DNA of 64,000 nucleotides from Gemmatimonadales bacterium (GCA_052389555.1 JBQTHV010000172.1:326-64325); one strand, 5' to 3'. Positions 4,198-58,586 are shown, numbered from the stretch's first letter. Notes: generated from the letters alone by a model not told the origin. A program made the numbers and translations.

Positions 4198-5673
4198 CTA
4201 ATGGCGGGACGGCTCGATATCCACCTGGATCGCGCGCCACTTCCCCTGGCGGAACCGCAGCACGCTCAGGCCGCTGCGGGTCGCGTGGCCCAGCAGGATC
4301 GCGAGCCAGATGTCGGCCGGTCGTAACCCGCGGCTGGCCTCGAGGAGGGTGAGCAGGCCAAGGGGCAGCGCGACCTGGGAAATGAGGCTGATGACGAGGG
4401 GGGAACGGGTGTCTCCGGTGCCCTGCAGGCCGCCGGTGTAGGTGAGCGCGGTCGTCACCAGCAATCCCGAGAGACTCAGGAAACGCAGGAGCTGGGTACC
4501 GATTCCAACCACCACCGGGTCGGTCATGCCGAAGAGCCCGAGGAGTTGCCCCGGAATGGTGAGAAAGAGCGTGCCCACCGTGGCCGCGAGGCCGAGCCCG
4601 AAGTAGGCCGCCACGTGCACCGACTGGACGGAGCGCTCCGGCTGTTTGGCGCCCAGGTTCTGGCCCGCCACGGCCGCCGCGGCGCCCATGAGCCCCACCG
4701 ACGTCCAGGTGATCAGCGAGAACAACTCGGTGTATCCCACGGCATAGGCCGCCTGGGCCTGGGCGCTCTGCTCGAGCGAACCGATGAACCTGAGCAGCAG
4801 CACGCCCGCGACGTTCATCGCGATCCCCTGCACGCCCGCGGGCAGTCCGAACCGAAAGAGGGAGCGGATCACCGCCCAGTCCGGGCGCTTGTCCATGCCT
4901 CGCGGCCAGTGGATCACCATCCGCCCGGTGGTGAGCAGATAGAGCGCGATCCCGCTCACGATCGCGCCCGCGATCACCGTCCCGAGCCCGGCGCCCGCGG
5001 TGCCCAGCGCCGGAATCGGCCCTAACCCGCGGATCAGGATGACATTCAGGGTGATGTTGAGCGCGGTGAGCAGAATGCCGAGCCGCATCGGGGTGCGCGC
5101 GTCGCCGGCCGAGCGGAGCGCGGCACTCAGCATGAAGAAGAGCATCATGCCGAAGCTGGCCACCAGCATGATTCGCAGGTAGGGGAGCGCCTGGGCCTGG
5201 ACCTCGGGCGTGGCATGCACCAGCCGGAGCAGGGCGGGCGACAGCACCCAGCCGAGCGGGGCAAGGATGATGAGCGCCATGCCAAGCGAGGCAATGAATG
5301 CCTGGTAGACGGTGCGATTCACCTTGTCGGGCTCGTTGGCCCCGGCGAACCGCGCCACCAACACGCTCATCCCCGTGAACAGCGAGTTCACGAAAATGAT
5401 CACGACGATGAAGATCTGAATCGAGACCCCGATCGCGGCGTTGGCGGTGTAGCCGACGAAATGGCCCACCATGGCGTGATCGATCAGGCCCTGCATCCCC
5501 CCGATCACGTTCTGGATCATGGTGGGCCAGGCGAGCTTCCAGACCGCCCGCGCGATCGGCCCTTCGACGATGGCGCGGTCGAAGGGTTTCCCGCCCGGCC
5601 GGGGTGGCGGTGGCTCGGCGCTCGGCACTCGGCGCTCGGCGGCGCTCGGCCGCTCGGCGGGGGGTGAGGTCAA
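4198..5673 (-). CDS. MATE family efflux transporter
   Basis: 491-aa ORF, about 12 predicted TM helices, N-terminal MATE signature WPTMIQNVIGGMQGLIDHAMVGH. The N-terminal tail is encoded by a GCTCGGCG-type repeat array. Confidence 0.9.
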   Translation of the reverse strand: MTSPPAERPSAAERRVPSAEPPPPRPGGKPFDRAIVEGPIARAVWKLAWPTMIQNVIGGMQGLIDHAMVGHFVGYTANAAIGVSIQIFIVVIIFVNSLFTGMSVLVARFAGANEPDKVNRTVYQAFIASLGMALIILAPLGWVLSPALLRLVHATPEVQAQALPYLRIMLVASFGMMLFFMLSAALRSAGDARTPMRLGILLTALNITLNVILIRGLGPIPALGTAGAGLGTVIAGAIVSGIALYLLTTGRMVIHWPRGMDKRPDWAVIRSLFRFGLPAGVQGIAMNVAGVLLLRFIGSLEQSAQAQAAYAVGYTELFSLITWTSVGLMGAAAAVAGQNLGAKQPERSVQSVHVAAYFGLGLAATVGTLFLTIPGQLLGLFGMTDPVVVGIGTQLLRFLSLSGLLVTTALTYTGGLQGTGDTRSPLVISLISQVALPLGLLTLLEASRGLRPADIWLAILLGHATRSGLSVLRFRQGKWRAIQVDIEPSRH

Positions 5674-5682
5674 GCGCGCATT

Positions 5683-6165
5683 TTAACCGCGCCGGACGTA
5701 GTCGTCGAGCCGGTCGAAGCTTCTGGCCGCCCCATCCCTCATGCCGCTCTCCATGGCACGATCGCGCGCTTCCTTCGAGGGGTAGCGGATGGTCACGGTC
5801 ATCCGGGTGCCGCCGTTCTCCTCGGTGAGTACCAACGTGTTTACCGTCTGGGGCCAGTCGCCGCCCCACGCCTCGGTGTGGACCAGCCGCTCCGGCGGCT
5901 TCACTTCCCGATAGGTCCCTCGCATCTCCATCTCGGTACCGTCGGTCCGGCGCCAGGCGTAATGCCAGGCGCCACCGGGCCGAAGGTCGATTTCGCAAGT
6001 CGGCATGCTCCATCCCTCGGGGCCGAGCATCCAGTGCGGGACGTGGCGGGGATCGGTCCAGGCCTCCCACACCTTCTGGCGCGGTGCGTCGAACCAGCGG
6101 GTAAAAGCGAACTCCCGGTCCGAGGGGGTGCTGAAGGCGGTGGGGTTGGTTCGAGCGGCAGACAT
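5683..6165 (-). CDS. SRPBCC / AHSA1 (Aha1-like) domain protein
   Basis: Internal ATG at 6165 (MSAARTNPTAF...). FTRWFDAPRQKVWEAWTDP and the C-terminal SFDRLDDY are typical of ArsR-linked AHSA1 proteins. The longer ORF to 6261 would overlap the upstream regulator. Confidence 0.8.
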   Translation of the reverse strand: MSAARTNPTAFSTPSDREFAFTRWFDAPRQKVWEAWTDPRHVPHWMLGPEGWSMPTCEIDLRPGGAWHYAWRRTDGTEMEMRGTYREVKPPERLVHTEAWGGDWPQTVNTLVLTEENGGTRMTVTIRYPSKEARDRAMESGMRDGAARSFDRLDDYVRRG

Positions 6166-6202
6166 CAGGCACTCTCCGATCGGGTGAAGTGGTACGGTGG
6201 CA

Positions 6203-6743: not shown

Positions 6744-8807
6744 CTACGTATTCGGCACGTTCCGCCGCAACTCATCCAGCCACACCGTAGCCGTCGCATC
6801 GCTGGGTGCCCGCCAGTCCCCTCGCGGCGAAAGGGAACCGCCCGACCCCACCTTCGGCGCGTTAGGCAACGCCGAGCGCTTGAACTGGCTCTGCTCGAAA
6901 AAGCGCAGCAGAAACACCTCGAGCCATCGCGTGATCTCTGCGAGCGTGTACTGATGCCGGCGCTCCGGCGGTAGCAGCTCGGGCCAGGTGCCCCGCTCCC
7001 GATCACCCCAGGCCTGGTGCGCGAGGTATGCCACCTTGCTGGGCCGGAACCCGAAGCGGGCGGTGTAGTACAGGTGAAAGTCTTGCAGCTCGAAGGGACC
7101 CACCACCTCCTCGGTGCTCTGCAGCACGTCTCCGGAGGCCGGAACGAGCTCGGGCGAGATCGCCGTCTCGAGAATGGAGTGCAGCGTCTCGTTCACGTCG
7201 GCCGGGAACTCACCCGACCTCGCGACCCATCGGATGAGGTATTGAATCAGGGTCTTGGGGATGGACGCGTTGACGCTGTAGTGCGCCATCTGGTCGCCCA
7301 CCCCATAGGTCGTCCAGCCCAGCGCGAGCTCGCTCAGGTCGCTGGTCCCCACCACCAGGCCGCCGTGGAAGTTGGCCAGCCGGAACAGGTGGGAGGTCCG
7401 CTCCCCCGCTTGCACGTTCTCGTAGGTCCGGTCGTGGACCGGCTTCCCTTCGGCCGCCGGATGGCCCAGGTCCCGCAGCATCTGCTGGGCCGAAGGCCGA
7501 ATGTCGATCTCGCCGGCGGTGATGCCGAGCGCCCGCATCAGGCGCCGGGCGTTCGTGCGGGTTAGGTCGCTCGTCGCGAAGCCGGGCAGTGAGAAGCCCA
7601 GCACGTTGGTGCGCGGCAGGCCGAGGCGGTCCATCGTCCGGGCCGCGACCAGCACCGCCTGAGTCGAGTCCAGCCCTCCCGATACGCCCATGACCACGTT
7701 CTCGATGCCGGTGCCGGCGAGCCGCTGGGCCAGGCCATGGACCTGGATGTGGTACGCCTCGTAGCAGCGGGCATCGAGCTGGGCGGGATCGCTTGGCACG
7801 TAGGGAAACCGCTCGACGGTCCGGCGGAGCTCCTGGGACCCAGGGGGGACCTCGAACGCGAAGGGGACCCGCCGAAGTTCCCTAACCCGCTCCCGGTATT
7901 CACCCGCCTGGTCGTTGAAGCTGGTGAGCCGGGAGCGTTCCTGCACGAGCCGCTCGAGGTCGAGGTCGGCCACCGTGAGCTGCTCGTCCGCAGCAAAGCG
8001 CGAGGATTCGGCCAGCAGCACGCCATTCTCGTAAACCAGGGCCTGGCCATCCCAGGCGAGATCGGTAGTCGATTCGCCGGCGCCCGACGCGGAGTAGAGA
8101 TAGGCGGCGACGCACTTGGCGGACTGGCCGGCGCAGAGCTGCCGCCGGTAGTCCGCCTTCCCGATCGTGATATTACTGGCCGAGAGGTTGGCCAGGATCG
8201 TCGCGCCGGCCAGGGCTCCCCAGGTGCTGGGCGGGATCGGGACCCACACGTCCTCACAGATCTCCACAAACAGCGCGAACCCATCGAGGTTGGTCGCTTC
8301 GAAGATCAGGTCATTGCCGAACGGGATCGCCTGGCCGAGCAGACCGACCTCGCGTCCCACCGCCAGCCCGCCCGGCGTGAACTGGCGGCGTTCATAGAAC
8401 TCGCGGTAGTTCGGCAGATAGCTCTTGGGAGTGACGCCGAGGAGACGGCCCCGGTAGATCACCACGGCGCAGTTGAAGAGCTTGCCTTCGAATCGGAGCG
8501 GGGCGCCGACGATCAGCACCGGGGAGAGCGACCGGCTCTCGGTAATCAGCCGATCGAGGGAGCTCAGGACGGCATCGAGCAGCGCGTCCTGCTGGTGGAG
8601 GTCGTCGTTGCTGTAGGCGGAGAGCCCCAACTCGGGGAAGAGGGCGACAGCGGCGTCGAGTTCCGAGGCTCGGCGCGCGAGCCCGAGGGTGCGCTCAAGA
8701 TTGAAGGCGGGATCGGCAATCCTAACCCGCGGCGTCGCGACCGCGCCGCGGATGAACCCGTGCCGGTAGATCGAGCGGAAGGGGAGAGACGCGGGCGGCC
8801 GGTTCAC
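6744..8807 (-). CDS. nadE: glutamine-dependent NAD+ synthetase (long form with N-terminal nitrilase domain)
   Basis: 687-aa ORF with an N-terminal carbon-nitrogen hydrolase domain and a C-terminal synthetase domain carrying the SGGLDS PP-loop. Confidence 0.92.
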
Positions 8808-9623: not shown

Positions 9624-10121
9624 ATGACACGTCTGTCTCGCCCAGTCCGGGAAGGCTTGATCGTGGGTTTCCTGGCCTACCTGTCGGTGGCGGTGTTCTA
9701 TGCGCTGTTCGATCTGCTCGCGGCTCGGGGCCCGCTCTACACCGTGAACATGGTGGGCCAGGCCGTCTTCCGGGGCCTCCGGGATCCCGCCGTGCTCCAG
9801 CTCCCGGTGCCGCTCGACACGGGGGCGATCTTCACGTACAACGCCCTCCACCTGTTCGTGTCGTTGGCCATCGGGATCATCGTGGTCCAGCTCGTGGCGC
9901 AGGCGGAGCGAACCCCGGCGCGGGGCCGCCTGGCCCTGGCGGTCATCGTGGCAGGATTCGGGGTAACGATCCTGGCGGTAGGATTCCTAACCCGCTCAAT
10001 CCGTCCTGTGCTGCCCTGGTGGTCGATCGTGGTGGCCAACGGACTGGCGGTGGTGCTGGCCGGATTCTATCTGACCCGCCGGCATCCGGGGATCTGGCGG
10101 CGCCTCGCCTACGCGACCTGA
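9624..10121 (+). CDS. hypothetical integral membrane protein
   Basis: Start at ATG 9624 preceded by GAGGA. Four hydrophobic helices and no recognised family. Confidence 0.55.
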   Translation: MTRLSRPVREGLIVGFLAYLSVAVFYALFDLLAARGPLYTVNMVGQAVFRGLRDPAVLQLPVPLDTGAIFTYNALHLFVSLAIGIIVVQLVAQAERTPARGRLALAVIVAGFGVTILAVGFLTRSIRPVLPWWSIVVANGLAVVLAGFYLTRRHPGIWRRLAYAT

Positions 10122-10221: not shown

Positions 10222-10304
10222 TGGCCGGGCGGTCAGACCCGCGTTTGACCACGCGGCTCTACAGGGTCAATTTCTTCGCGTCCATTCCTCATCCGGTTGA
10301 TTCC

Positions 10305-13300
10305 ATGACTGCTCCTCGCGTGCTCTCTAATCTTGCTCTCGGCTTGCTTGCCGCTGGCATGCTGGTCATCCCCGACACGCCCCTGGCCCAGACCCGCAGC
10401 CCCGCGCCTGCTCGGACCCTCGCCTCCGTGACTCTCGATTCGGCGTTTCTCGCAGGATTCCGCTGGCGCAATGTCGGGCCGGACCGGGGCGGGCGCTCGA
10501 TTGCGGTGAGCGGAGTCCGAGGCCGGCGCAACGAGTCGTATTTCGGTGCGACCGGCGGCGGCCTCTGGAAAACGACCGATGGGGGAGAAACCTGGTTCCC
10601 GGTGACCGACAAGCAGATCACCAGTGCCTCGGTCGGTGCGGTGGCGGTGAGCGAGACCAATCCCGATGTCGTCTTCATTGGCACCGGCGAGTCCTGCATT
10701 CGTGGGAACATCATGCCGGGTGACGGGGTCTACCAGAGCACCGATGCGGGGAAGACCTGGACTCACGTCGGGTTCCGCGAGTCCCACGCGATCTCCAAGA
10801 TCCGCATCCACCCCGCCAATCCCGACATCGTCTTCGTGGCCTCTTTCGGGAAGTACAGCGCGCCGAGCTCGGAGCGCGGGGTGTACAAGAGCATGGATGG
10901 CGGGAAGACCTGGCGCCGGGTGCTCTTTCGCGACGACAAGACCGGCGCGGTCGATATCTCGATCGATCGCAACAATCCGAATGTGATCTACGCGGCGCTC
11001 TGGGAAGCGTTCCGCAAGGAATACACGATGTCGAGTGGCGGGCCGGGCAGCGGGCTGTTCAAGAGTACCGACGGGGGTGAGACCTGGACCGAAATCACCC
11101 AGAATCCCGGTTTACCGTCGGGCGTCATCGGCAGGATCGGGGTCGCGGTGTCCGGGGCAAACTCGAATCGCGTGTATGCCCTGGTCGAGAACGAGAACGG
11201 CGGACTGTTCCGGAGCGACGATGCCGGGGCTACCTGGTCGCTGGTCAACGACAACCGGGCGATTCGGCAGCGGGCCTTCTACTACACCCACGTGTTCGCC
11301 GATCCCAAGAACGCCGACGTGGTATACCTGCAGAACACCGCGATGTTCAAGTCGACCGACGGCGGCAAGACCACGACCAACCTCGGCCAGGGAACCCACG
11401 GGGATCATCACGATCTCTGGATCGATCCCGACGACCCGGCTCACCTGGTGGACGGCAATGACGGCGGCGGTGCGATTTCGACGGTCGGCGGTGGCGGCCG
11501 GTGGACCGCGCAGGATTACCCGACCGAGCAGTTTTACCACGTGGTCACGACGAAACACATCCCGTATCACGTGTGCGGCTCTCAGCAGGACAACTCGACC
11601 CTCTGCATTCCGTTCAATTGGAATGCCGGGGGTGCGTTCCGGTTCGGGGGAGGGCCGGGCGGACCGGGCGGACCGGGCGGTCCCCCGCGCGATCCTACGT
11701 CGGGCGGGATGGCGGTCGCGTACCTCGCGGGCGGCGGCGAGCCGGGGTACATCGCGCCGGACCCGCTCGATCCCGACATCTTCTACAGCGGCACCAACAA
11801 CGGCCGCTACGTCGACAAGTACAACCGCCGGCTGGGCACCTCGCGCGAGGTGAATCCCTATCCCTGGTTCTACTCCGGCGAGGCCGCCAGGGACATCCGG
11901 GAGCGCTGGCAGTGGACCTTCCCGATCATCTTCTCCCCGGCAGATCCCGGGACCCTCTACGTGTCCTCGCAGCGGCTCTGGAAGACGACCGACGGGGGAC
12001 GGACCTGGACCGCGCTGAGCGGTGACCTAACCCGGCACGATCCGGCGACGCTGGGGCACTCGGGCGGCCCGATCACCGGCGACATGAACGGGCCCGAAGT
12101 GTATGCGACCATCTTCTCGGTCGGGCCGGGCAAGCGGGACGTGAACGTGATCTGGACCGGCTCGGATGACGGGCTGGTCCACCTGACCCAGGACGGCGGG
12201 AAGACCTGGACCAACGTCACGCCGAAGGAGATGCCCGATCTCGGCCGGGTGAGCCAGATCGACGCGTCGGCGTTCGCTTCGGGTACCGCGTACGTCTCGG
12301 TGCGGCGGCCCCTGCTCGATGACCTTTCACCCTACATCTTCAAGACCCACGACTTCGGGCGCACCTGGACCCGGATCGTGAGCGGGATCCGGCCCGATGC
12401 CTACGTGCACGCGGTTCGCGAAGATCCCACCCGGCGCGGGCTGCTCTACGCTGCGACCCAGCATGGGGTCTACCTCTCGTACGACGACGGCACCAGCTGG
12501 CAGTCGCTCCGGCTCAACATGCCCGACGTGCCGGTGAGCGACCTGATCGTGGAAGGCAACGAGCTCGTGATCGCGAGCCATGGCCGGGGATTCTGGGTGC
12601 TTGACGATATCGCGCCCCTCCGCCAGGCCACGCCCGACGTGCTGGCCCGGCGCGCCCATCTCTTCACGCCTTCGACCGGAGTCCGCTCGGGCACCGGAGT
12701 GACCGTGAGCTGGATGCTCAAGACCGCGCCTAACACGCTCAAGCTCGAAGTGCTGGATTCGACCGGCCAGGTGCTTCGCACCTACACGACCCCGACGCCA
12801 GCCGACTCGGCGGCGGCTGCTCCGGGTGGAGGAGGGGGTGGGGGCGGGGGTCGTTTCGGTGCCACCAGTCCGCTACCCAGGGGAACCGGCATGCAGCGGT
12901 TCACCTGGGACCTCCGTACTCAGGGGATCACCGGATTCCCTGGCATGATCCTGTGGGGCGCAGGTCTCAACGGTCCCGCGGTTCCGCCAGGCCGGTACCA
13001 GCTCCGGCTGACGGCGGATGGCCAGACCCTCACCGCGCCGGTCTCGGTCGTGCGTAACCCGCGGATCACCGAGGTGAGCGACGCCGACCTGCGCGCCCAG
13101 TACGCGTTTTCCAAACGGGTCCGCGACAAGGCCGAGGAGGCCAATCAGGCGGTGATCGCCATCCGTCGCGTCAAGACCCAGCTCGCCGAGCGGCTCAAGC
13201 AGTCGAACGATGCCGCCCTCAAGGCGGCGGGCGACCGGCTGGTCGCGAACACCTCGGCGGTGGAAGAGAACATCTACCAGGTGCGGAATCGAAGCGGGCA

Positions 13301-13532
13301 GGATCCGCTCAACTTCCCGATCAAGGTGAACAACCGCCTGGCGAATCTCCTGTCGATGTCGCAGCGTGGGGATGGGCCGCCGATCAATAACATGCCGGAG
13401 ATCTTTGCGATCCTGTCGGCGGAGCTCAAGCAGTACACCGGCCGGCTGGCGCAGGTCTGGGCGACGGATCTCGTGGCGGTGAATCGGGAGCTCGCCCGGC
13501 TCCGGTTGCCGCCGCTGGATCCGACTAAATAG
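10305..13532 (+). CDS. secreted BNR/Asp-box repeat protein (sortilin/VPS10-like, glycosyl-hydrolase-like beta-propellers)
   Basis: About 1075 aa from ATG 10305 with a signal peptide. Many Asp-box motifs (TTDGGETW, STDAGKTW, SMDGGKTW, STDGGKT, TQDGGKTW, SYDDGTSW). Confidence 0.85.
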   Translation: MTAPRVLSNLALGLLAAGMLVIPDTPLAQTRSPAPARTLASVTLDSAFLAGFRWRNVGPDRGGRSIAVSGVRGRRNESYFGATGGGLWKTTDGGETWFPVTDKQITSASVGAVAVSETNPDVVFIGTGESCIRGNIMPGDGVYQSTDAGKTWTHVGFRESHAISKIRIHPANPDIVFVASFGKYSAPSSERGVYKSMDGGKTWRRVLFRDDKTGAVDISIDRNNPNVIYAALWEAFRKEYTMSSGGPGSGLFKSTDGGETWTEITQNPGLPSGVIGRIGVAVSGANSNRVYALVENENGGLFRSDDAGATWSLVNDNRAIRQRAFYYTHVFADPKNADVVYLQNTAMFKSTDGGKTTTNLGQGTHGDHHDLWIDPDDPAHLVDGNDGGGAISTVGGGGRWTAQDYPTEQFYHVVTTKHIPYHVCGSQQDNSTLCIPFNWNAGGAFRFGGGPGGPGGPGGPPRDPTSGGMAVAYLAGGGEPGYIAPDPLDPDIFYSGTNNGRYVDKYNRRLGTSREVNPYPWFYSGEAARDIRERWQWTFPIIFSPADPGTLYVSSQRLWKTTDGGRTWTALSGDLTRHDPATLGHSGGPITGDMNGPEVYATIFSVGPGKRDVNVIWTGSDDGLVHLTQDGGKTWTNVTPKEMPDLGRVSQIDASAFASGTAYVSVRRPLLDDLSPYIFKTHDFGRTWTRIVSGIRPDAYVHAVREDPTRRGLLYAATQHGVYLSYDDGTSWQSLRLNMPDVPVSDLIVEGNELVIASHGRGFWVLDDIAPLRQATPDVLARRAHLFTPSTGVRSGTGVTVSWMLKTAPNTLKLEVLDSTGQVLRTYTTPTPADSAAAAPGGGGGGGGGRFGATSPLPRGTGMQRFTWDLRTQGITGFPGMILWGAGLNGPAVPPGRYQLRLTADGQTLTAPVSVVRNPRITEVSDADLRAQYAFSKRVRDKAEEANQAVIAIRRVKTQLAERLKQSNDAALKAAGDRLVANTSAVEENIYQVRNRSGQDPLNFPIKVNNRLANLLSMSQRGDGPPINNMPEIFAILSAELKQYTGRLAQVWATDLVAVNRELARLRLPPLDPTK

Positions 13533-13540
13533 GAGATAGT

Positions 13541-15573: not shown

Positions 15574-15576
15574 TCG

Positions 15577-40925: not shown

Positions 40926-42168
<1,243 letters not shown>

Positions 42169-48910: not shown

Positions 48911-49936
48911 TTGATCCTCGTTACCGGGGGCGCCGGCTACATCGGGAGCCACGCGTGTCTCGAGCTGCTCCGGGCGGGATACGATGTGGCGGTGCTCGAT
49001 AATCTCGCGAACAGTCACGAGGAATCGCTGCGGCGGGTCCGGGAGCTGGCCGGGCGGGATCTGGTTTTCCATTGCGCCGACATGCGGGATGCCGAGGCGC
49101 TCGATCGGATCCTGGGTGCCGGCGGGGTTCAGGCCGTGCTCCACTTTGCGGGTCTTAAGGCCGTCGGCGAGTCCGTCGAGCAGCCGCTTCGCTATTGGGA
49201 CAACAACGTCGCCGGCACGATCACGCTGCTCGAGGCGATGATCCGCCACGGAGTCAAAGTCATGGTGTTCAGCTCCTCGTGCACGGTGTACGGGGATCCC
49301 GCCTCGGTGCCGATTCGGGAAGACGCGCCGGTGAGCGCGGTCAATCCCTACGGGATGACGAAGCTCACCATCGAGCGGATCCTGGCCGACGTATACCGGG
49401 CCGATCCGGCCTGGGCAATCTCCCTCCTGCGCTACTTCAATCCGGTTGGTGCCGACCCGAGCGGCCGCATCGGGGAAGATCCCAGTGGGGTCCCGATGAA
49501 CCTGCTTCCCTACATCACGCAGGTGGCCGTCGGCAAGCTACCACGCCTCACCCTTCACGGAAACGACTACCCGACCCGGGACGGGACCGGGGTACGCGAC
49601 TACATCCATGTCACCGACCTGGTGATCGGCCACCTCTGCGCCCTGGAAGAGCTCGTTCGCGGGCCGCGGCTCGTGACCTATAACCTGGGGACCGGACGGG
49701 GCTACTCGGTGTTGGAAGTGGTGCAGGCCTTCGAGCGAGTGACCGGGAGGAAGGTGCCGCGACAGTTCGGTCCGCGCCGCCCCGGAGATGTCGCCGAGGC
49801 CTGGGCCGATCCCGCGCTCGCCCGCGAATCGCTCGGCTGGACCGCCCCCCGCGGCATCGAGGAGATGTGCGCGGATGCGTGGCGGTGGCAGGAGCTGAAT
49901 CCGGAGGGATATCGGCGCACAGGAGGTAGTAAGTAG
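48911..49936 (+). CDS. galE: UDP-glucose 4-epimerase
   Basis: TTG 48911 gives MILVTGGAGYIGSH. YxxxK region and SSSCTVYG. The last codons (GGSK*) lie in a repeat arm. Confidence 0.9.
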   Translation: MILVTGGAGYIGSHACLELLRAGYDVAVLDNLANSHEESLRRVRELAGRDLVFHCADMRDAEALDRILGAGGVQAVLHFAGLKAVGESVEQPLRYWDNNVAGTITLLEAMIRHGVKVMVFSSSCTVYGDPASVPIREDAPVSAVNPYGMTKLTIERILADVYRADPAWAISLLRYFNPVGADPSGRIGEDPSGVPMNLLPYITQVAVGKLPRLTLHGNDYPTRDGTGVRDYIHVTDLVIGHLCALEELVRGPRLVTYNLGTGRGYSVLEVVQAFERVTGRKVPRQFGPRRPGDVAEAWADPALARESLGWTAPRGIEEMCADAWRWQELNPEGYRRTGGSK

Positions 49937-50030
49937 GAGGCAGTAAGTAGGGAACAGCACCTCCCGGAGCAGGAACCGTACACCGGCAAGATTTGTCCCT
50001 TCTTACTATCTCCTACTTACTACCTCCTAG
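49919..50030. repeat. zipper hairpin built from AGGAGGTAGTAAG words (family 3)
   Basis: CAGGAGGTAGTAAGTAGGAGGCAGTAAGTAGGGA - loop - TCCCTTCTTACTATCTCCTACTTACTACCTCCTAG. Supplies the identical GGSK* ends of both convergent flanking genes. Confidence 0.9.
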
Positions 50031-51356
50031 TAGTTTCCTAACCCGCGGCCACAACGCTTCGATATCAGCAACTGACACCGCCCCCACCGAGAGCCGGAAC
50101 CAGCCGGTATCCTCGGCGACTCCGAATGCCTGGAACGGCACCGCCGCGAGTCCCGCGCCGGTAAGCAAGAGCCGGCGGAGCGCCTCGTTGTCCTCTACCA
50201 CCGTGCCATTCACGGTTCGTCCGACCAGCTCCACCCCGAGCGACCCATACATGGCGCCCTCGGGCCGAACGCAATCGAGCGGCAGCCCCTCTCGCTTGAG
50301 TTGCAGCACCCCGTCCGAGACTGCGTCCAGCCGTACCCGAAGTCCGCGGGTGATGGCTTCTCTGAACTCGGCAATCGCGGCTGGCTCTCGCAGGAAGGCC
50401 GCGGTCGCCTTCTGCTCGGGACGCGGCGCCCAGGCGCCCACGTGACCGAGGAAGTCTCTCATTCGCGCGATCACCGCGGGCGCACCGATCGCCCAGCCCA
50501 CCCGGAGGCCGGTGGCCGCGAATCCCTTCGAGATCCCGTCGATCACGATCACCCAGGGCGCCGCCTCCGGAACCAGGGCGAGGGGATGGGCTGAGGGAAC
50601 TCCCGGCTGCACCAGCGATCCGTAGATGAGATCGTAGAGTACAAAAAGCGGACGACGGCGGGCTCGTTGTCTCCGCTCGTTCTCGCGAACGACGGCCCGG
50701 AGGATATCGTCCAGCACATCGGGTGCGAGGGTGGTTCCGGTGGGATTGTTTGGCGAGCAGAGACAGAGCAAGCCGGCTTCCGCCAGATGGGGCTCGAGCT
50801 GGTCGAGGGTCGGCTGAAACCGTTGGGCCGCGGTCGTCCGCACCGGAATCCCCCGCGCCTTCACCATGTCTATGTAGTAATCGTTGTTCCAGCTCGGCAC
50901 TGGGTACAGGACGGCATCACCGGCGTCCAGCAGGCAGCGGAAAGCCGCGTAGATCGCCGGTCGTCCTCCTGCGGTGATGAGGACCGACTCGATCGGGTAC
51001 TCCACGTCGTGCTCGCGCCGCACCGACTCGGCGACGGCTTCCCGAAGGGTGAGCAGTCCGTCGGATGGCGGGTAGTTGGTCTCGCCTTCACCGATGGCGC
51101 GGATAATCCCCTCCCGCAACAGCGGGGGGATCGGAAACTGCCGCGGGTCGAAGTCACCGACCGTCAGATTGCAGAGCGGACGGCCGGTGGCCACGAGGGC
51201 GCGCACCTCGCTGGCAATGCGGAGGATCGCGGAGCCGCGGAGTCCCCGAGCCATTTCGGAGAGAACCGAGTCCAGGATGAGCGGGTCTCCGAAATCCAGT
51301 GTTGTGTCGGGAATTGGGGCGCTGGTTTGGCGGGCAGGGCGGGCGGAAGCGGCCAT
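50013..51356 (-). CDS. PLP-dependent aminotransferase, class I/II (aspartate aminotransferase-like)
   Basis: 447 aa. PLP-lysine motif SKGFAATGLRVGW and NPTG motif CSPNNPTGT. Confidence 0.88.
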   Translation of the reverse strand: MAASARPARQTSAPIPDTTLDFGDPLILDSVLSEMARGLRGSAILRIASEVRALVATGRPLCNLTVGDFDPRQFPIPPLLREGIIRAIGEGETNYPPSDGLLTLREAVAESVRREHDVEYPIESVLITAGGRPAIYAAFRCLLDAGDAVLYPVPSWNNDYYIDMVKARGIPVRTTAAQRFQPTLDQLEPHLAEAGLLCLCSPNNPTGTTLAPDVLDDILRAVVRENERRQRARRRPLFVLYDLIYGSLVQPGVPSAHPLALVPEAAPWVIVIDGISKGFAATGLRVGWAIGAPAVIARMRDFLGHVGAWAPRPEQKATAAFLREPAAIAEFREAITRGLRVRLDAVSDGVLQLKREGLPLDCVRPEGAMYGSLGVELVGRTVNGTVVEDNEALRRLLLTGAGLAAVPFQAFGVAEDTGWFRLSVGAVSVADIEALWPRVRKLLGGSK

Positions 51357-52106: not shown

Positions 52107-52321
52107 CTTCCCCTTCCGAACGTGCGGTCGAGGACCCGCGCCGGCTCCTGGCAGAGGCGGGCCACGCGCTGCGGGGTCCTCTCACGGTGCTCCGGGGCGA
52201 GCTGGAGCTGGCCCTAACCCGCGAGCGGTCATCCGAGGAATATCAGGACGTGCTCCGCCGCTGTCTCGACGAGGTGGTGCGCCTGACCCGGCTGGTCGAG
52301 GGGTTCACGAGCAACGCCTGA
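52103..52321 (+). CDS. HisKA (DHp)-only stub of a sensor histidine kinase
   Basis: 72 aa. H-box AGHALRGPLTVLRGELELA and the second DHp helix, with no TM/sensor/HAMP and no HATPase_c. ATGA-coupled to the regulator. Confidence 0.6.
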   Translation: MTSPSERAVEDPRRLLAEAGHALRGPLTVLRGELELALTRERSSEEYQDVLRRCLDEVVRLTRLVEGFTSNA

Positions 52322-53634
52322 TGCGCCGTCTCCTCCTGGCCGGGATGTCGCTCCTCGGACCCGTCGGGCTGGCGGCCCAGCGGCCGGGCGAATGGGACCG
52401 GGTGCTCGAACCGCGGGTGGCGGCGGCCCTCCCGCAGGTGGTCGCCTGGCGGCGCGACATCCACCAGCATCCCGAGCTCTCCAATCGCGAGGTCCGCACC
52501 GCCAAGCTGGTGGCGGATCACCTAACCCGGCTTGGTCTGGACGTGCGGACCGGGGTCGCTCACACCGGGGTCATCGCGATTCTTCGCGGCGGGAAACCCG
52601 GGCCGGTGGTGGCGCTGCGGGCGGACCTGGACGCCCTGCCGGTCACCGAGCTGGTGGATCTCCCGTTCAAGTCCACCGCCACCGCCGAGTACAACGGGCA
52701 GCAGGTTGGGGTGATGCACGCCTGCGGCCACGACAATCACGTTGCCATCCTGTTGGGCGCTGCGACGGTCCTCGCGGGGATTCGCGCGCAGATCCCCGGG
52801 ACCATCACGTTTCTCTTCCAGCCCGCCGAGGAAGGACCGCCGCTCGGCGAGACGGGCGGCGCGAGCCTCATGATCCGGGAGGGCGCTCTCGAGAATCCCG
52901 CCCCGGGCGCGATCTTTGGGCTGCACGTGTGGCCCGAGCGGGTGGGGACGATCACCTGGCGGGCCGGTCCGTTCATGGCCGCCTCGGACCAGTTGCGGAT
53001 CGTGGTGCGGGGCAAGCAGACCCACGGCGCGGTGCCCTGGGGCGGTGTCGATCCCATCACGGTCGCCTCCCAGATCGTGCTGGGACTCCAGACCGTGGTG
53101 AGCCGGCAGACCGACCTAACCCGCACGCCCGCCATCGTCACCATCGGGGCGATCCAGGGCGGCAACCGCGGCAATATCATCCCGGACAGCGTGGTGATGC
53201 TCGGCACGGTGCGCACCTTCGACGAAGCGGTGCGGGCCGACGTAAAGCGCCGGATCGAGCGGACCGCGCGCTCGATCGCGGAGGCGGCCGGAGCAACCGC
53301 CGTGGCTGATTTTCCCGGCGTCAATAACCCGGTGACCTACAACGATCCCGCGCTTACCGAGCGCATGCTGCCGACGTTGCGGCGGGTCGCGGGCGAGGGC
53401 AAGCTGATCCAGACGGGCCTCCAGACTCCGTCCGAGGACTTTGCCTGGTATCAGCAGAAGGTGCCGGGACTCTTCGTCTATCTCGGCATCGTTCCCGAGG
53501 GGAAAGATCCGGCCGCCGCTCCGCGGAATCACTCTCCCTATTTCTTCGCCGATGAGGGCGCGCTTCCGGTGGGGGTGCAGCTCCTAGCGACCCTCGCGCT
53601 CGACTGGCTCTCCGGTCCAGGCCGACCTCGGTGA
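52321..53634 (+). CDS. M20D family amidohydrolase (N-acyl-amino acid amidohydrolase / hippurate hydrolase type), secreted
   Basis: ATG 52321 with a signal peptide. HQHPELSNRE, MHACGHDNH and FQPAEEG metal-binding motifs. Confidence 0.88.
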   Translation: MRRLLLAGMSLLGPVGLAAQRPGEWDRVLEPRVAAALPQVVAWRRDIHQHPELSNREVRTAKLVADHLTRLGLDVRTGVAHTGVIAILRGGKPGPVVALRADLDALPVTELVDLPFKSTATAEYNGQQVGVMHACGHDNHVAILLGAATVLAGIRAQIPGTITFLFQPAEEGPPLGETGGASLMIREGALENPAPGAIFGLHVWPERVGTITWRAGPFMAASDQLRIVVRGKQTHGAVPWGGVDPITVASQIVLGLQTVVSRQTDLTRTPAIVTIGAIQGGNRGNIIPDSVVMLGTVRTFDEAVRADVKRRIERTARSIAEAAGATAVADFPGVNNPVTYNDPALTERMLPTLRRVAGEGKLIQTGLQTPSEDFAWYQQKVPGLFVYLGIVPEGKDPAAAPRNHSPYFFADEGALPVGVQLLATLALDWLSGPGRPR

Positions 53635-54977
53635 GCGGCAGCGCCGCCGAGCCGCCGAGCCGCCGAGCCGTCCCGCCGTCCGGTCCTGCGCCGGAGCTGG
53701 CCCGCCGAATCGGGCGGTGGGCGCTCACGGGGCTGGTCATCAACGGGATCGTCGGCAGCGCGATCTTCGGGTTACCCGCGACCGTCGGCGAGCGGCTCGG
53801 CCGCGGCGCGCCGCTGGCTTGGGCCCTCGCCGCGGTGCTCATCGGGATCGTGGTGGCCTGCTTTGCCGAGGTGGCCTCGCGGTTCCGCGAGGCGGGCGGG
53901 CCGTACCTCTTCGTGCAGGCCAGCTTCGGGCGGTTCGCGGGCCTCCAGACCGGGTGGATGGCCTACCTAACCCGCCTCACTGCCGCGGGCGCGGTCGCGA
54001 ATCTCCTGGTGAGCTATCTCGGCGTGATCGTGCCCGGCGCCGATGCGGTGCCCGGCCGGTACGTCGTCCTCGCGGCGGTCATCGGTGGTCTGGCCGCGGT
54101 GAACTATCGCGGCGTCGGACCGGGCGCGGGGGTCAGCAGCGCGTTTGCCATCCTGAAGCTGCTCGGCCTGTTCGTCTTTGCCGGGGCCGGGCTCCTCTGG
54201 CTGCTTGGGCACGAGGGAATCCCGGCTCCCGCCGCTCCCCCGGGCATCGATCCCTGGCTGGCTACCCTGCTCGTGCTGGTCTTCGCGTACGGGGGCTTCG
54301 AAGCGGCCCTGATGCCGCTGGCGGAAGCGAAGAACCCCGAGCGCGACGCGCCGGTGGCGCTGTTCACCGCCCTCGCTACGGCCACCCTGGTCTACATGCT
54401 GGTCCAGACCGTGGTGACCCTCACCCTGCCTAACCCGGGCGCCACGACGACCCCGCTGGCCGACGCGGCGCGGGGGTTCCTGGGGACCGGCGGGGCGATG
54501 TTCATCGCGGCGACCGCCTTGCTCTCGACCTTCGGCTATCTGGCCGGTGCGATGGTCAATGTGCCGAGGCTGACGTTTGCGATGGCGGAGCGCGCGGAGC
54601 TCCCCCGCGGGTTCGCCGCGGTGCATCGGCGCTTCCGGACTCCGTTTGTATCGATTCTCGTCTTCGCGGGTCTGGCCTTCGTGCTCGCGGCGAGCGGGAG
54701 TTTTCTCCAGAACGTGAGTCTCTCGGTGGCGGCGCGGCTCATTACCTACGGCCTGGTGTGCGCCGCCCTCCCGGCGCTCCGGCGCCGCGACGGCACCGCC
54801 AGAACCGCTTCCCCTGCCGCCTTCCGGCTCCCCGGAGGACCGGTGCTGGCCGGGCTTGGCGTGTTAGGCATGGCGCTCATGGCGGTGCAGGTGAGCGCGC
54901 GCGAGGTGGTGATCATGGGCGTGGTGATCGTGCTGGCGAGCGTGCACTACTTCGTCGTGAGTCGGCGGGCGGATTAG
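53631..54977 (+). CDS. APC superfamily amino acid permease
   Basis: 448 aa, 12 TM helices, GIVGSAIFGLPA N-terminal signature. The N-terminal tail is repeat-encoded. Confidence 0.88.
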   Translation: MSGSAAEPPSRRAVPPSGPAPELARRIGRWALTGLVINGIVGSAIFGLPATVGERLGRGAPLAWALAAVLIGIVVACFAEVASRFREAGGPYLFVQASFGRFAGLQTGWMAYLTRLTAAGAVANLLVSYLGVIVPGADAVPGRYVVLAAVIGGLAAVNYRGVGPGAGVSSAFAILKLLGLFVFAGAGLLWLLGHEGIPAPAAPPGIDPWLATLLVLVFAYGGFEAALMPLAEAKNPERDAPVALFTALATATLVYMLVQTVVTLTLPNPGATTTPLADAARGFLGTGGAMFIAATALLSTFGYLAGAMVNVPRLTFAMAERAELPRGFAAVHRRFRTPFVSILVFAGLAFVLAASGSFLQNVSLSVAARLITYGLVCAALPALRRRDGTARTASPAAFRLPGGPVLAGLGVLGMALMAVQVSAREVVIMGVVIVLASVHYFVVSRRAD

Positions 54978-55097
54978 CTAGTGGCTATGGGCTATTGGCT
55001 ATTGGCTATTGGTCAACAGCCTAACCCGCAGGGCTTTTTCCAATAGCCAATAGCCAATAGCCAATAGCCAATAGCCTCTTCCAATAGCCAATAGCCC
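54977..55097. repeat. zipper hairpin built from CCAATAG/CTATTGG heptamers (family 2)
   Basis: GCTAGTGGCTATGGGCTATTGGCTATTGGCTATTGG - TCAACAGCCTAACCCGCAGGGCTTTTT - (CCAATAG)x5..CCAATAGCCAATAGCCC. The loop begins like the 21163 copy and carries CCTAACCCGC. Confidence 0.9.
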
Positions 55098-55100: not shown

Positions 55101-56027
55101 TCAGAACAACTCCGCGATCAGGCACCGTGCGCTTCCCCCGCCCAGCCGCTCGAAGGCGGAGAGCTCGGTATGGAGGATCCGTCCCCGGCGCTCGAGCTCG
55201 AGCAGCTGTTCGGCCGTGAAGGCCCGCCAGGCCCGGCTCGACATCACCCAAAGCGGTTCTCCCGCGGTCGAGGTGAGGGCCAGGCAATTGCCGCAATACT
55301 CGGATACCTGGGCGCGGGTTAGGGAGAGGATCGCATTGCCGTCCCGGTGCAGCCGCTCCTCGACGGCGCGCCGCTGGCCCGGCTCCTCGATCGCCTCAAG
55401 CGCGATTCCCGCGGCGCCGTGCCCGATGAAGAGCAGGACGTTGGTGTGGTAATAGGGAACGCCGTTCGGGTCGGTGGCGCGGAACCCAACCAGGTCATAC
55501 CCCAGCGCCCGCGCCCATTCCGCCGCCAGGCCGGCATCGGTCCGAGGGGAAAGGGCCGCATACGCCGCACGGTGCGCGTGATCCAGCACCAGGCTGCCGG
55601 TGCTTTCCAGGAATCGGCCTTCCCGTTCCTCGCCGGAGAAGTCCAGAAACCGGGAGTAGGCAGGGCGCAAGAGCTCGATGAGATCGCTGCGCCGCTCGGG
55701 GCGCCGGTTGCGTGCCATCAGCGGATACACCACCAGGGCCGCAGGTTCTTCCCGGGGCGCCGGCGCCGCCGGGTGGGTGGAAAACCAGTTATTGCAGAAG
55801 GGGCCGTCCGGGGTCGCTTCGACGCTGCGGGTTAGGGTGACGGTCACGCCCTGCCCGACCAGCAGATCGCGGAGGTGCCGGTGCTGCTCCACCGCCAGGG
55901 CCTCGAGGCTCCGGGCCTCCTCCGGCGAGACGGCTTCCTGGAACACGTTGGTGGCCTGGGTCTCCGGGTTGAAGCGAAACCGGTGCGGTTCGATCAAGAG
56001 GACGTGCGACGCTGCGGCCTCCGCCAT
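55101..56027 (-). CDS. amidinotransferase-fold protein (arginine deiminase-related; CtlX-like citrulline utilisation hydrolase)
   Basis: 308 aa. N-terminal LLIEPHRFRFNPETQATNVFQ and C-terminal catalytic GGGSARCLIAELF. Confidence 0.8.
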   Translation of the reverse strand: MAEAAASHVLLIEPHRFRFNPETQATNVFQEAVSPEEARSLEALAVEQHRHLRDLLVGQGVTVTLTRSVEATPDGPFCNNWFSTHPAAPAPREEPAALVVYPLMARNRRPERRSDLIELLRPAYSRFLDFSGEEREGRFLESTGSLVLDHAHRAAYAALSPRTDAGLAAEWARALGYDLVGFRATDPNGVPYYHTNVLLFIGHGAAGIALEAIEEPGQRRAVEERLHRDGNAILSLTRAQVSEYCGNCLALTSTAGEPLWVMSSRAWRAFTAEQLLELERRGRILHTELSAFERLGGGSARCLIAELF

Positions 56028-56771: not shown

Positions 56772-56784
56772 AAAGGCTCGCAAG

Positions 56785-57381
56785 TTAGGTCGGTCGTGTC
56801 GCCGGAGGAAGCAGCCGGTGGCCGACCCAGGTCCCCACCGCCCAGCCGCCAAGCGCCCCGCCCACGACATCGCTCAGGAAATGACTCTCCGCCAGGAGCC
56901 GGGTGACTCCGCAGCCTGCGGCCAGCAGGTACAGAACCAGTGCAGCTTTCGGATATCGCCGCGCGAGGACCGCGGCTCCTCCGAACGCGACCATGACGTG
57001 ACTGCTCGGGAAGCCCAGGTCGTGGGTGTCGAAGAGCCGCTCGGTGAAGGGGCGATAGAAGTATTCTCCCTCGTGCAGGCCGGGCCGCTCGCGGCGAACC
57101 AGCAGCTTGAGCAGCTCGGCCGCGCCGCCGGCGATCGCCGGGCCCAGGAGCAGAGCGCCGGCCAACCGGACCTGACCCCGATCGCGGCGGCCTTCCAGCC
57201 AGAAGGCCACGGCTAGCGCCACCCAGAAGAAGATGCTCCCCGAGATGCGGAGCAGCCGGCCCCAATCATGCTGGTACACCCCGGGATATCTCACGGTTTG
57301 GAATACCCAGGGATCGAGCCACAGGGCGGCGAGCGTGGCGAGCGCAGCGCCCAAGAGCGCGAGGGCGAGGCGCCGCCGCAT
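56785..57381 (-). CDS. PAP2 superfamily phosphatase
   Basis: 198 aa. KxxxxxxRP (KLLVRRERP), PSSH and SHFLSDV motifs. Confidence 0.85.
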   Translation of the reverse strand: MRRRLALALLGAALATLAALWLDPWVFQTVRYPGVYQHDWGRLLRISGSIFFWVALAVAFWLEGRRDRGQVRLAGALLLGPAIAGGAAELLKLLVRRERPGLHEGEYFYRPFTERLFDTHDLGFPSSHVMVAFGGAAVLARRYPKAALVLYLLAAGCGVTRLLAESHFLSDVVGGALGGWAVGTWVGHRLLPPATRPT

Positions 57382-58586
57382 TAACCCGCAGCGCGGGTTA
57401 GGCTATCGGCGGCCCCGGCCAGCGCCTGCTCGAGCGCTTCCTGGCTGGCCGGCCCCGCCGCGCCCTGGAGGACGCGATCGCCGCCGCCGCGCCCGCCGCC
57501 GAGCCGGTCGAGGGCCTGCCGGAAGGCGGGACCGAGGTCCACCGCGACCGACTCCGAGCGGCCGAACACCAGCTGGCAGCGAGGTCCGGTCGTGCCGAGC
57601 AGTGCGACGGTCTGCGGTTCCCCGGTGAGCCGGAGGGCCAGCGCCTTGAGCTCCTCGAGCGGCCGGGTGTCCCACGCGGCCACGACGAGCCGGTACGATC
57701 CCCGGGGAGCGGTGGCGAGCAGGCGGCTCGCCTCTTGATCCAGTTCGCGCTCCCGGTACTCGGTGAGCTCACGGCGCGCAATCCGGAGCGTCTCCTGCAT
57801 GCGGGTTATGGCCTCCTTGAGCTCGGCCGGGGCGCAGGTGAGCGCGGCGGCCAGCTCGCGCACGATGGCGCGCTTCCGGGCGTAGTCGGCGCGGGCCCGC
57901 TCGCCGGAGAGGAACTCGACCCGGGTTCCCCCTTTCTTCCGCTCGGCGCGCTGGACCGCGATGAGGCCGACCTCGCCGGTCGCGGCGACGTGGGTCCCCC
58001 CGCAGGGCGAGAGATCGAACTCGCCGATCGCGACCAGCCGCACCGGGCCGGCGACGTCCGGCTGTTTGCGCAGGGTTAACCCGCTGAGCTCGCTATCCGA
58101 CGGGAACCAGGCCCGGATCGCGAGGTTGCCCGCGACGATCCGGTTGGCGAGCGATTCGGCGTCCGCGATGCGCTCGTCGGGGAGGGACGCGGTGGCGAGA
58201 TCGATGCTGACGGTTTCCGCGCCGAGGTGAAAACTGACGGTCTCGGCACCGGCCGCCTGGAGGAAGGCCTGGGAAAGGATGTGCTGGCCGGTATGCTGCT
58301 GCATGTGATCGTAGCGGCGCGGCCAGTCGATCAGGCCGGCGACCGGACCCGGTTCGACCGGCGCATCGAGCACGTGCAGGACGGTCTGGTCGCCATCTCG
58401 CGCGATGACGTCGATGACCGCCGCCGAGCCGAGTCGCCCGGTGTCGTGGGGCTGTCCGCCCGAGGTCGGATAGAAGAGCGAACGATCCAGTACCGCGGTG
58501 GGGCGATCTCGAAGCGCCGTGGTTTCGATCACGGTCCCCTGGAACTCGCGGGTATAGGAATCGGAATAGTAGAGACGGTCAGTCAA
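57381..58586 (-). CDS. alaX: alanyl-tRNA editing protein AlaX-L (tRNA_SAD + DHHA1-like)
   Basis: HTGQHILS and CGGTH zinc motifs. Start taken at TTG 58586 (MTDRLYYSDSY), because the longer ORF to 58616 runs into the tRNA fragment. Confidence 0.85.
   Translation of the reverse strand: MTDRLYYSDSYTREFQGTVIETTALRDRPTAVLDRSLFYPTSGGQPHDTGRLGSAAVIDVIARDGDQTVLHVLDAPVEPGPVAGLIDWPRRYDHMQQHTGQHILSQAFLQAAGAETVSFHLGAETVSIDLATASLPDERIADAESLANRIVAGNLAIRAWFPSDSELSGLTLRKQPDVAGPVRLVAIGEFDLSPCGGTHVAATGEVGLIAVQRAERKKGGTRVEFLSGERARADYARKRAIVRELAAALTCAPAELKEAITRMQETLRIARRELTEYRERELDQEASRLLATAPRGSYRLVVAAWDTRPLEELKALALRLTGEPQTVALLGTTGPRCQLVFGRSESVAVDLGPAFRQALDRLGGGRGGGDRVLQGAAGPASQEALEQALAGAADSLTRAAG

Follow-up and report, generated by a model that had tools for sequence, protein, structure and literature searches.

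Why one short DNA word should recur through otherwise ordinary genes, at a density of about one exact copy per 1.5 kb, is the question raised by a 64-kb stretch of DNA (hereafter the window, that is, the whole 64,000 nucleotides analysed; GCA_052389555.1 JBQTHV010000172.1:326-64325), a contig of the metagenome-assembled genome (MAG) of an uncultured soil bacterium of the Gemmatimonadales (67% GC), in which the NadE product matches an NCBI MAG protein at 100% identity. By exact search of both strands we found 38 copies of the nonamer CCTAACCCG, which reads CGGGTTAGG in the other orientation, spanning positions 5021-57402 (22 on the plus and 16 on the minus strand). An initial annotation of the window had arrived at the same count and strand split, and its coordinates hold for all copies except the first, which lies at 5021-5029 and not at 5031. 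It had also put the chance expectation below one copy, in agreement with dinucleotide-preserving shuffles (0.31 exact copies expected, maximum 2), with Markov models of order 1-3 (0.39-0.64) and, for genes, with the codon permutation described below. The exact word is over-represented 60-100-fold. A maximal-order Markov model is uninformative on 64 kb because sub-words are themselves dominated by the word, and orders 1-3 and the codon permutation were used instead; at the scale of this contig the observed frequency lies far above each of these expectations.

The specified sequence reaches one base beyond the nonamer and tolerates some variation. The word is followed by C in 26 of the 38 exact copies and by G in 10, a preference that the initial annotation had noticed for nearly all of them, and 27 9-mers of the window lie one mismatch from the word (roughly 25 had been seen), with CATAACCCG dominant among them (9 copies versus 0.2 expected, followed by C or G in 9 of 9). 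The core TAACCCG occurs 66 times versus 4-6 expected. The exact word (CC form) and this variant (CA form) combine into the full motif C[C>A]TAACCCG[C/G], which is present 47 times, a density of 0.73 per kb. In an alignment of the 20-base flanks of the 38 exact copies, conservation stops at the tenth base; the flanks are unrelated, so that the word does not belong to any longer repeat unit. There is no orientation bias, since the 22:16 split of exact copies (binomial p = 0.42) and the 26:21 split of CC and CA copies (binomial p up to 0.56) are both close to even, which bears out, at contig scale, the expectation that no strong strand skew would be found. Relative to transcription, 17 copies lie on the coding and 14 on the template strand; with both strands used in this way, an RNA-level signal was rejected. 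Spacing between copies fits an exponential distribution (coefficient of variation 0.93-1.01, Kolmogorov-Smirnov p ~0.5, on a small sample). The window probably lies in one replichore, because cumulative GC skew climbs over essentially its entire length.

About 31 of the 38 exact copies are intragenic, in ordinary housekeeping and metabolic genes. Annotation by Pfam scans of ~50 open reading frames (ORFs) of the window identified among them NadE, an ATP-dependent DNA ligase, a SerA-like dehydrogenase, isocitrate/isopropylmalate dehydrogenase, CtaA, extracytoplasmic function (ECF) sigma and anti-sigma factors, an M20 hydrolase, a permease, DDAH and AlaX; genes were called by a heuristic based on GC content at third codon positions, of which a few calls at ~50.6-52.3 kb are wrong, including an antisense ORF called there. 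All four stop-free frames are used, and the remaining two, which would hold TAA or TAG, contain 0 copies. The four readings and the peptides quoted in the initial annotation are correct: 14 copies are read as xxC CTA ACC CGx (L-T-R), 8 as CGG GTT AGG (R-V-R), 6 as xxC GGG TTA GGx (G-L-G; 7 with an anti-sigma ORF) and 3 as CCT AAC CCG (P-N-P). By shuffling synonymous codons across sites of the same amino acid, which preserves both proteins and codon usage, we obtained an expectation of 0.27 coding copies (maximum 3 in 1000 trials) versus 31 observed. Because the word has three A/T bases in a 67% GC genome, it forces rare codons: CTA makes up 1.6% of Leu codons, and copies of the word account for 14 of its 25 occurrences; TTA makes up 1.0% of Leu codons with 6 of 15 inside the word, and AGG makes up 3.6% of Arg codons with 8 of 51. 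The initial annotation had called these three codons almost absent; CTA and TTA are rare, and the wording is too strong for AGG with its 51 codons.

The effect extends to the proteins. In the called genes, the word spells 14 of 21 LTR, 8 of 14 RVR, 6 of 11 GLG and 3 of 4 PNP tripeptides. We compared tripeptide frequencies per 1000 aa in the window with those in Gemmatimonadota relatives and in other high-GC loci (195,000 aa), and LTR stood at 1.36 in the window versus 0.41 and 0.36, respectively, with the reversed control RTL at 0.32 versus 0.65 and 0.51; PNP at 0.26 versus 0.06 and 0.09; RVR at 0.91 versus 0.65 and 0.63; and GLG at 0.71 versus 0.65 and 0.67. Relative to relatives and to the reversed-peptide control, LTR is enriched 3.3-3.7-fold and PNP 3-4-fold; RVR is enriched 1.4-fold and GLG shows no enrichment in this comparison. 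Since LTR and PNP are enriched while GLG is not, the word has both recoded existing tripeptides and created new ones, and codon usage and proteome alike bear its cost. A 2-2.7-fold enrichment of encoded tripeptides is a common property of uptake sequences (Findlay & Redfield, PMC2817400).

Individual sites display the same two outcomes. Sites in NadE and M20 were each aligned with 119 homologues. At the DLTR site of NadE, Leu415 corresponds to Leu in 2 of 119 homologues and to Arg in 66 of 119, with the next Thr present in 119 of 119; at its PRVR site, the first Arg (Arg27) is found in 6 of 119 and Phe in 71 of 119, followed by Val in 100 and Arg in 110 of 119. At the DLTR site of M20, Leu266 is shared by 20 of 119 homologues (Val in 77) and Arg268 by 24 of 119 (Lys in 46), on either side of a Thr found in 117 of 119, and at the HLTR site of the same protein the Leu is invariant and was only recoded. 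These alignments indicate that copies sit where conserved residues fit the word, with neighbouring variable residues changed to complete it. Placement at poorly conserved residues has likewise been described for the uptake signal sequences (USS) of Pasteurellaceae and the DNA uptake sequences (DUS) of Neisseriaceae (PMC2817400). That the word is maintained at the DNA level and not at the protein level, as first proposed from the codons alone, is strongly supported, because all four frames and both strands are used, rare codons are taken up and residues are altered to fit.

The word is also found in other genomes. Closer relatives were identified through a search with M20, and their contigs, known from pieces of 4-21 kb, are syntenic with window positions 44.6-58.7 kb; the word-bearing ones include GCA_035286985.1, GCA_900079655.1, ERZ25039533 contig_66025 and JGI 3300055048 Ga0556617_0000192. 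Ordered by identity of the M20 protein, L229 (85%, 4.3 kb) carries 1 CC and 0 CA copies, L230 (84%, 6.9 kb) 1 and 2, L231 (80%, 7.4 kb) 1 and 0, L232 (80%, 6.0 kb) 1 and 0, L233 (77%, 21.3 kb) 1 and 3, and L235 (76%, 21.3 kb) 4 and 3; L234 encodes the same M20 protein as L233, and L233's two CA sites are common to both. Together these six relatives (L229-L233 and L235, 67 kb) hold 9 CC and 8 CA copies, 17 in all, where ~0.3 CC copies are expected, and the window's own syntenic segment holds 15 copies in 14.1 kb. The CC:CA ratio varies among relatives and density varies several-fold, with the window genome as the extreme. The word-free syntenic relative L236 (ERZ27274774 k141_2325709; M20 identity 74%, 21.3 kb) has the same gene order as the window with 0 CC and 0 CA copies, and four more distant Gemmatimonadota loci (L081-L087; 76-78% NadE identity, 85 kb), used as outgroups, contain 0 copies and not even the TAACCCG core. 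Because six syntenic relatives carry the word, and L236 and more distant Gemmatimonadota are without it, the comparison marks the word as a heritable trait of a Gemmatimonadales sub-clade. The same word appears in independent assemblies of the relatives from NCBI, JGI, ENA and Logan. Further afield, 80 loci around NadE homologues (<=72% identity, mostly from other phyla) hold 3 copies in total, which is no enrichment. A metagenome scan for inverted word pairs gave at least 120 contigs, none of those listed having dispersed copies; unrelated iteron clusters and palindromes were seen in them instead, and two viral-contig scans gave isolated pairs of the word only.

From a multiple alignment of the syntenic region, the origin of single copies can be traced. 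Three sites are shared with relatives while their flanks have diverged, in accordance with the suggestion that the word and not its surroundings would be conserved in orthologous genes, here seen at some sites: 50037 in the window, L229 and L230; the CA copy at 57802 (CGGGTTATG) in the window, L233, L234 and L235; and 48623 in the window and L235. The remaining window copies, which are most of them, are lineage-specific. Conversely, at 52282 the window has the one-off form CCTGACCCG where L231 and L232 have the exact word, and L235 has copies at 11805, 12492, 13044 and 16139 of its own contig with no window counterpart. At 53966, CCTGACCCG became CCTAACCCG by a synonymous change of CTG to CTA, with CTG or CTC kept in six relatives; at 54429 the same CCTGACCCG, encoding PDP and still present in L233, became the word encoding PNP, and L235 spells PNP there as CCG AAT CCC, without the word. 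The copy at 55828 corresponds to CGGGTCAGG in L235, one transition away from CGGGTTAGG, and at 52521 the CTC or CTG of relatives became CTA for the same invariant Leu. At 53115, GAT ATC ACC AAG (DITK) became GAC CTA ACC CGC (DLTR); L230 has GAC ATA ACC CGG at this site, a variant reached independently. Precursors thus lie 1-4 substitutions from the word and were converted by transitions and transversions, synonymous and non-synonymous, at different positions, with no indels at word sites in the syntenic alignment. Substitutions this varied, without indels, cannot have come from one mutational hotspot or from an inserted mobile unit. As read from these alignments, copies arise by point substitution and are mostly independent gains within a clade that inherits the trait, which points to some process that rewards the whole word.

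The placement of non-coding copies is not random. Two inverted pairs are present, one at 21718-21770, in which exact copies at 21718 (+) and 21762 (-) converge and pair with each other in a predicted hairpin (-59.9 kcal/mol, z = -3.9) between two co-directional genes, and one at 57382-57402, an inverted pair TAACCCGC-agc-GCGGGTTAGG that combines the exact copy at 57394 (-) with a partial copy, the resulting stem of 8 bp overlapping with the stop codon of the AlaX-like gene (57381-58616, -; C-terminus ..SLTRAAG-stop). The inverted pairs of DUS and USS form hairpins at gene ends, as do the two pairs here. In a terminator scan the word-bearing hairpins were not called as intrinsic terminators, because they are without T-runs. 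Three further exact copies sit in loops of 3 of the ~12 long zipper hairpins of the window, at 21205-21213 (-) in a (GGCTATT)n hairpin (21163-21250), at 42679-42687 (-) in an (AGAGGTG)n hairpin (42608-42728) and at 55020-55028 (+) in another (GGCTATT)n hairpin (54973-55096). Both these loop copies and the pair at the alaX end had been reported in the initial annotation and are real.

To our knowledge, Neisseriaceae and Pasteurellaceae are the only groups with well-established sequence-specific uptake signals. The DUS of Neisseriaceae (core GCCGTCTGAA, bound by the minor pilin ComP) is, like the word here, a non-palindromic 10-mer at ~1 per kb in both orientations, is intragenic in all stop-free frames with enrichment of the encoded tripeptides, and occurs in related taxa as family-level 'dialects' that differ by one base (PMC2817400, PMC3630211). 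The USS of Pasteurellaceae (core AAGTGCGGT or ACAAGCGGT) shares with it a 9-base core with weaker preferences at the edge, a density of ~1 per 1.2-2 kb, a mostly coding location at poorly conserved residues, enriched one-mismatch variants and subclades with different variants (PMC2817400, PMC1626085). In contrast to DUS, the word here has a different sequence with three A/T bases in a 67% GC genome, belongs to Gemmatimonadota and not Betaproteobacteria, and stands in a window in which no competence system or receptor is visible; in contrast to USS, it has no helically phased AT-rich flanks, is randomly spaced, and is a putative uptake signal by analogy. The resemblance to DUS and USS suggested by the initial annotation is real, and tripeptide enrichment, placement at poorly conserved residues, hairpin pairs and clade-specific dialects have been added to its hallmarks.

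Because length and density of the word, its even orientation, its use of all stop-free frames, tripeptide enrichment, placement at poorly conserved residues, substitutional origin, hairpin-forming inverted pairs and clade-restricted variants all match, a DUS/USS-type uptake mechanism is the most likely one behind the accumulation of the word, which would then be a lineage-specific recognition sequence; we put this mechanism at somewhat short of an even chance. Under such a mechanism the word would build up along the chromosome by successive point substitutions, through a process that favours DNA bearing the complete word. We infer that a surface DNA receptor of a natural-transformation apparatus would bind word-bearing double-stranded DNA in either orientation, that word-bearing fragments from conspecifics would be taken up preferentially and recombine into the chromosome, and that mutations creating or improving the word would spread by molecular drive up to the limit of protein function. 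Still more tentative is the wider proposal that this clade of uncultured soil Gemmatimonadales is naturally transformable with its own uptake sequence, C[C/A]TAACCCG[C/G], which would make it a third classical system, independently evolved and the first outside Pseudomonadota, the strength of which may have recently risen several-fold in the window's lineage.

Several points weigh against this proposal. Pfam scans of the ~50 genes of the 64-kb window found no com, pil or dprA gene, and we found no paper that links DNA uptake sequences to Gemmatimonadota. The evidence from the focal genome covers one contig. Most copies are not shared with relatives, a rapid turnover that is compatible with more than one cause, and any process favouring the whole word, be it selection on a binding site or a ratchet tied to repair or modification, would give the same hallmarks. 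The low-GC island at the contig end, which the initial annotation had offered as foreign DNA lacking the word, is indeed without copies (0 in 5.4 kb, P ~0.01-0.03; no exact copy lies beyond 57402), and as evidence that the word is missing from foreign DNA this is weak, since the depletion taken alone (P ~0.03) lacks significance and the first 5 kb, at normal GC, are equally empty.

Among the processes that could act in place of uptake, a site for a chromosome-maintenance protein under selection at the level of the organism, whether a Chi-like signal for recombination or against degradation, read by an enzyme of RecBCD/AddAB type, or a site bound by a nucleoid-associated protein or a repair protein, appears unlikely. 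Chi (e.g. GCTGGTGG in E. coli) is likewise short, asymmetric and over-represented in the core genome, and is read by a DNA-processing machine; that a few orthologous sites have kept the exact word while their flanks diverged, and that density is high in core genes, would be in keeping with such a role. Chi is strongly co-oriented with replication, only few-fold enriched and built from common codons, and none of this holds for the word here. With 58% of exact copies on the plus strand a mild skew is possible (binomial P 0.076 under a true 70% skew), whereas a skew as weak as the 26:21 of CC and CA copies has a chance of 0.003 under the 75% typical of Chi and of 0.02 under 70%, in a window that apparently lies in one replichore. 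An over-representation of 60-100-fold against codon usage also speaks against a maintenance site, and known nucleoid-protein sites are degenerate or few. Fixed sites would not be expected to be mostly unconserved, as they are here, or to vary several-fold in density among close relatives.

Less probable again, in our judgement, is that a DNA-modifying enzyme specific to the lineage, such as an orphan methyltransferase, recognises the word, which would then be spread by a modification/repair ratchet or by aided integration of incoming DNA, in the manner of the highly iterated palindrome HIP1 of cyanobacteria (GCGATCGC). HIP1 shows the same extreme over-representation within genes regardless of frame, spreads by substitution without indels, as copies do here, and is lineage-specific. 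It is, though, a palindromic octamer with two methyltransferases and quasi-periodic spacing, whereas the word here is asymmetric with distinct orientations, longer and randomly spaced; its precursors were converted by varied transitions and transversions and not by one repair-type change, and the only DNA methylase seen in the window (59427-61067) lies inside the low-GC island. Nine to ten contiguous specified bases also exceed the targets of typical methyltransferases. HIP-like palindromes do occur in other MAG lineages: a 22-kb locus of an Abditibacteriaceae MAG (L008; SMAG_U3232, DASVRI010000039.1) contains the palindromic octamer GAGTACTC 21 times versus <=0.08 expected, dispersed at ~1 per kb, a HIP-like hyperabundant word that is absent from eight other Abditibacteriota and Armatimonadota loci. 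Explanations of HIP1 have invoked methyltransferases, a ratchet resembling mismatch repair and, recently, transformation that depends on methylation (bioRxiv 10.64898/2026.06.24.733823), and with HIP1 itself being linked to transformation these alternatives are not fully exclusive of the uptake reading.

That there is no DNA-level signal at all, and the copies reflect a mobile repeat, a protein motif, chance or an assembly artefact, is refuted by the data and retains next to no probability. The three copies in zipper-hairpin loops are the observation that would fit a repeat element such as a repetitive extragenic palindrome (REP) or a miniature inverted-repeat transposable element (MITE). These elements are extragenic and have a longer conserved unit, whereas ~31 of 38 copies here lie within unrelated genes and nothing is conserved outside positions 1-10; with unrelated flanks a repeat element was rejected, as was a protein motif, given that four frames yield four different peptides. 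Chance is opposed by Markov and codon-aware nulls of less than one copy. Systematic base-calling error at a modified motif was rejected on the grounds that several sites need multiple changes and that independent assemblies of the relatives agree, and a single mutational hotspot on the grounds that precursors differ at varied positions by transitions and transversions.

With these alternatives considered, an uptake signal stays our favoured, putative assignment. What is new is a hyperabundant, uptake-signal-like word of new sequence in a new phylum: the searchable literature contained no description of the word on either strand in a bacterial context, and our literature search found no report of competence or natural transformation in Gemmatimonadota. 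Gemmatimonadota are abundant in soil and few are cultured. If the uptake reading is true, self-preferring transformation, or another whole-word drive, would be more widespread than thought, and the word would help both to identify the receptor and to manipulate the group genetically. The clade offers genomes of high, low and zero density at conserved synteny, which are suited to profiling for the receptor or enzyme involved, and the word could mark contigs of the lineage for binning and be added to transforming DNA. Whatever its nature, the process has raised the frequency of some tripeptides threefold and exchanged residues of housekeeping enzymes.

The LTR copies lie in NadE (6744-8807, -) at 7558-7566 (-; C CTA ACC CG, DLTR), in a BNR/sortilin-like gene (10245-13532, +) at 12026-12034 (+; DLTR), in a YkuD L,D-transpeptidase gene (15641-17386, -) at 17118-17126 (-; RLTR), in a Pyr_redox_3 oxidoreductase gene (20127-21143, -) at 20809-20817 (-; LLTR), in a NagB/PIG-L gene (22048-23880, -) at 23360-23368 (-; TLTR), in the ATP-dependent DNA ligase gene (26884-28518, +) at 27081-27089 (+; LLTR), in a DUF1015 gene (35706-36851, +) at 36092-36100 (+; YLTR) and in the isocitrate/isopropylmalate dehydrogenase gene (40903-42168, +) at 42054-42062 (+; GLTR). 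Towards the end of the window they are found in the M20 amidohydrolase gene at 52521-52529 (+; HLTR) and 53115-53123 (+; DLTR, with DITK, DLTK or DLTN in relatives other than L230), in the amino-acid permease gene (53631-54977, +) at 53966-53974 (+; YLTR) and in the DDAH-like gene (55101-56027, -) at 55315-55323 (-; SLTR) and 55828-55836 (-; TLTR), in addition to the copy at the AlaX-like C-terminus given above.

Copies read as RVR are located in NadE at 7881-7889 (+; CGG GTT AGG) and 8721-8729 (+; the PRVR site above), in the YkuD gene at 16433-16441 (+), in the ligase gene at 27436-27444 (-), in the COX15/CtaA gene (42722-43657, -) at 43388-43396 (+), in the ECF sigma-factor gene (44650-45162, -) at 44854-44862 (+), in a VIT-VWA gene (45159-47339, -) at 45690-45698 (+) and close to the 3' end of an aminotransferase gene (50013-51356, -) at 50037-50045 (+), the site kept in L229 and L230. 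The GLG frame is used in a MatE transporter gene (4198-5673, -) at 5021-5029 (+; coding strand C GGG TTA GG, RGLG), in the ligase gene at 27597-27605 (-; SGLG), in an M15 D-Ala-D-Ala dipeptidase gene (28519-29658, -) at 28907-28915 (+; RGLG), in the SerA-like dehydrogenase gene (36869-38080, +) at 37312-37320 (-; VGLG), in a rhodanese gene (39315-40163, +) at 39560-39568 (-; GGLG) and in a DUF4412 gene (48192-48902, +) at 48623-48631 (-; RGLG), where L235 also has the word and L233 does not; the copy at 44350-44358 (+), in the zf-HC2 anti-sigma ORF (43683-44732, -), was assigned to this frame from coordinates. PNP is encoded in an amidohydrolase gene (29682-30998, -) at 30291-30299 (-; CCT AAC CCG) and in the permease gene at 54429-54437 (+), where most relatives have PDP or ADP. 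The CA copy in the AlaX-like gene lies at 57802-57810 (-), and the eight further CATAACCCG(C/G) copies at 146 (-), 28627 (+), 29362 (+), 30577 (-), 34830 (-), 36291 (+), 42983 (+) and 45016 (-).

Outside intact genes, the exact word is present at 9986-9994 (+), in the intergenic region upstream of the BNR/sortilin-like gene, and at 52213-52221 (+), in a sensor-kinase remnant upstream of M20, where relatives have CCTGACCCG, CTCACCCG or CGAAGCCG. This remnant (52107-52320) is what is left, at ~200 nt, of a sensor histidine kinase gene that stands between a response regulator and M20 in L230-L236 and is absent altogether in L229. The intergenic zipper hairpins, of which there are at least 12, consist of one arm with a tandem array of 7-, 8- or 14-mers and another arm with the complementary array, in units such as (GGCTATT)n, (AGAGGTG)n, (AGCTATC)n, (GGACGGCA)n, (CGGTAAGA)n and (AGGAGGTAGTAAGT)n, with several unit types recurring across loci; their predicted folds reach -61 to -75 kcal/mol (z-scores between -7 and -9). 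Besides the three with the word in their loops, they are located at 3273-3323, 13531-13638, 15569-15664, 17562-17711, 38080-38196, 40142-40325, 47392-47511, 47784-47897 and 49921-50028. The low-GC island (58-62% GC) occupies 58600-64000, and the product of its methylase gene (59427-61067, -) joins an N6/N4 DNA methylase to an Mrr-like restriction-nuclease domain; small ORFs without a Pfam match follow this gene.

Further repeats are present in other loci. In a family of metagenome contigs, an iteron GTGCCTAACCCGGACTT sharing the core of the word is clustered, with ~16 copies of either orientation in ~500 bp (L093 1552-3091, L102 1159-1679, L127 172-599, L172 1182-1702, L184 10732-11200 and L089 26-262 and 13397-13640; also L163, L155, L173, L145, L207 and L187), and these contigs are probably linked to the window only through the selection made by the search pattern. 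In L089 (13.7 kb) both ends carry an iteron cluster. The high-end cluster directly precedes the start of a 3190-aa ORF that has Macro, Ulp1-protease and OTU domains, and the contig may represent a circular element or a terminally repeated replicon. Two metagenome contigs of ~3.6 kb each (L188 and L198) contain 24-28 TAACCCG per contig, mostly within a perfect palindrome CGGGTTAACCCG. Three inverted pairs of a ~28-nt repeat GTCAGAACCGCCTGCGGTAGCGGGCGGG, REP-like in appearance, are present in a Pyrinomonadaceae MAG (L007; 3328-3400, 4337-4410 and 18255-18330), and a metagenome contig of 42% GC (L165) has at 267-520 tandem repeats of 77-bp period, in every unit of which stands CCTAACCCGCGCAGGCGGGTT, a small hairpin.

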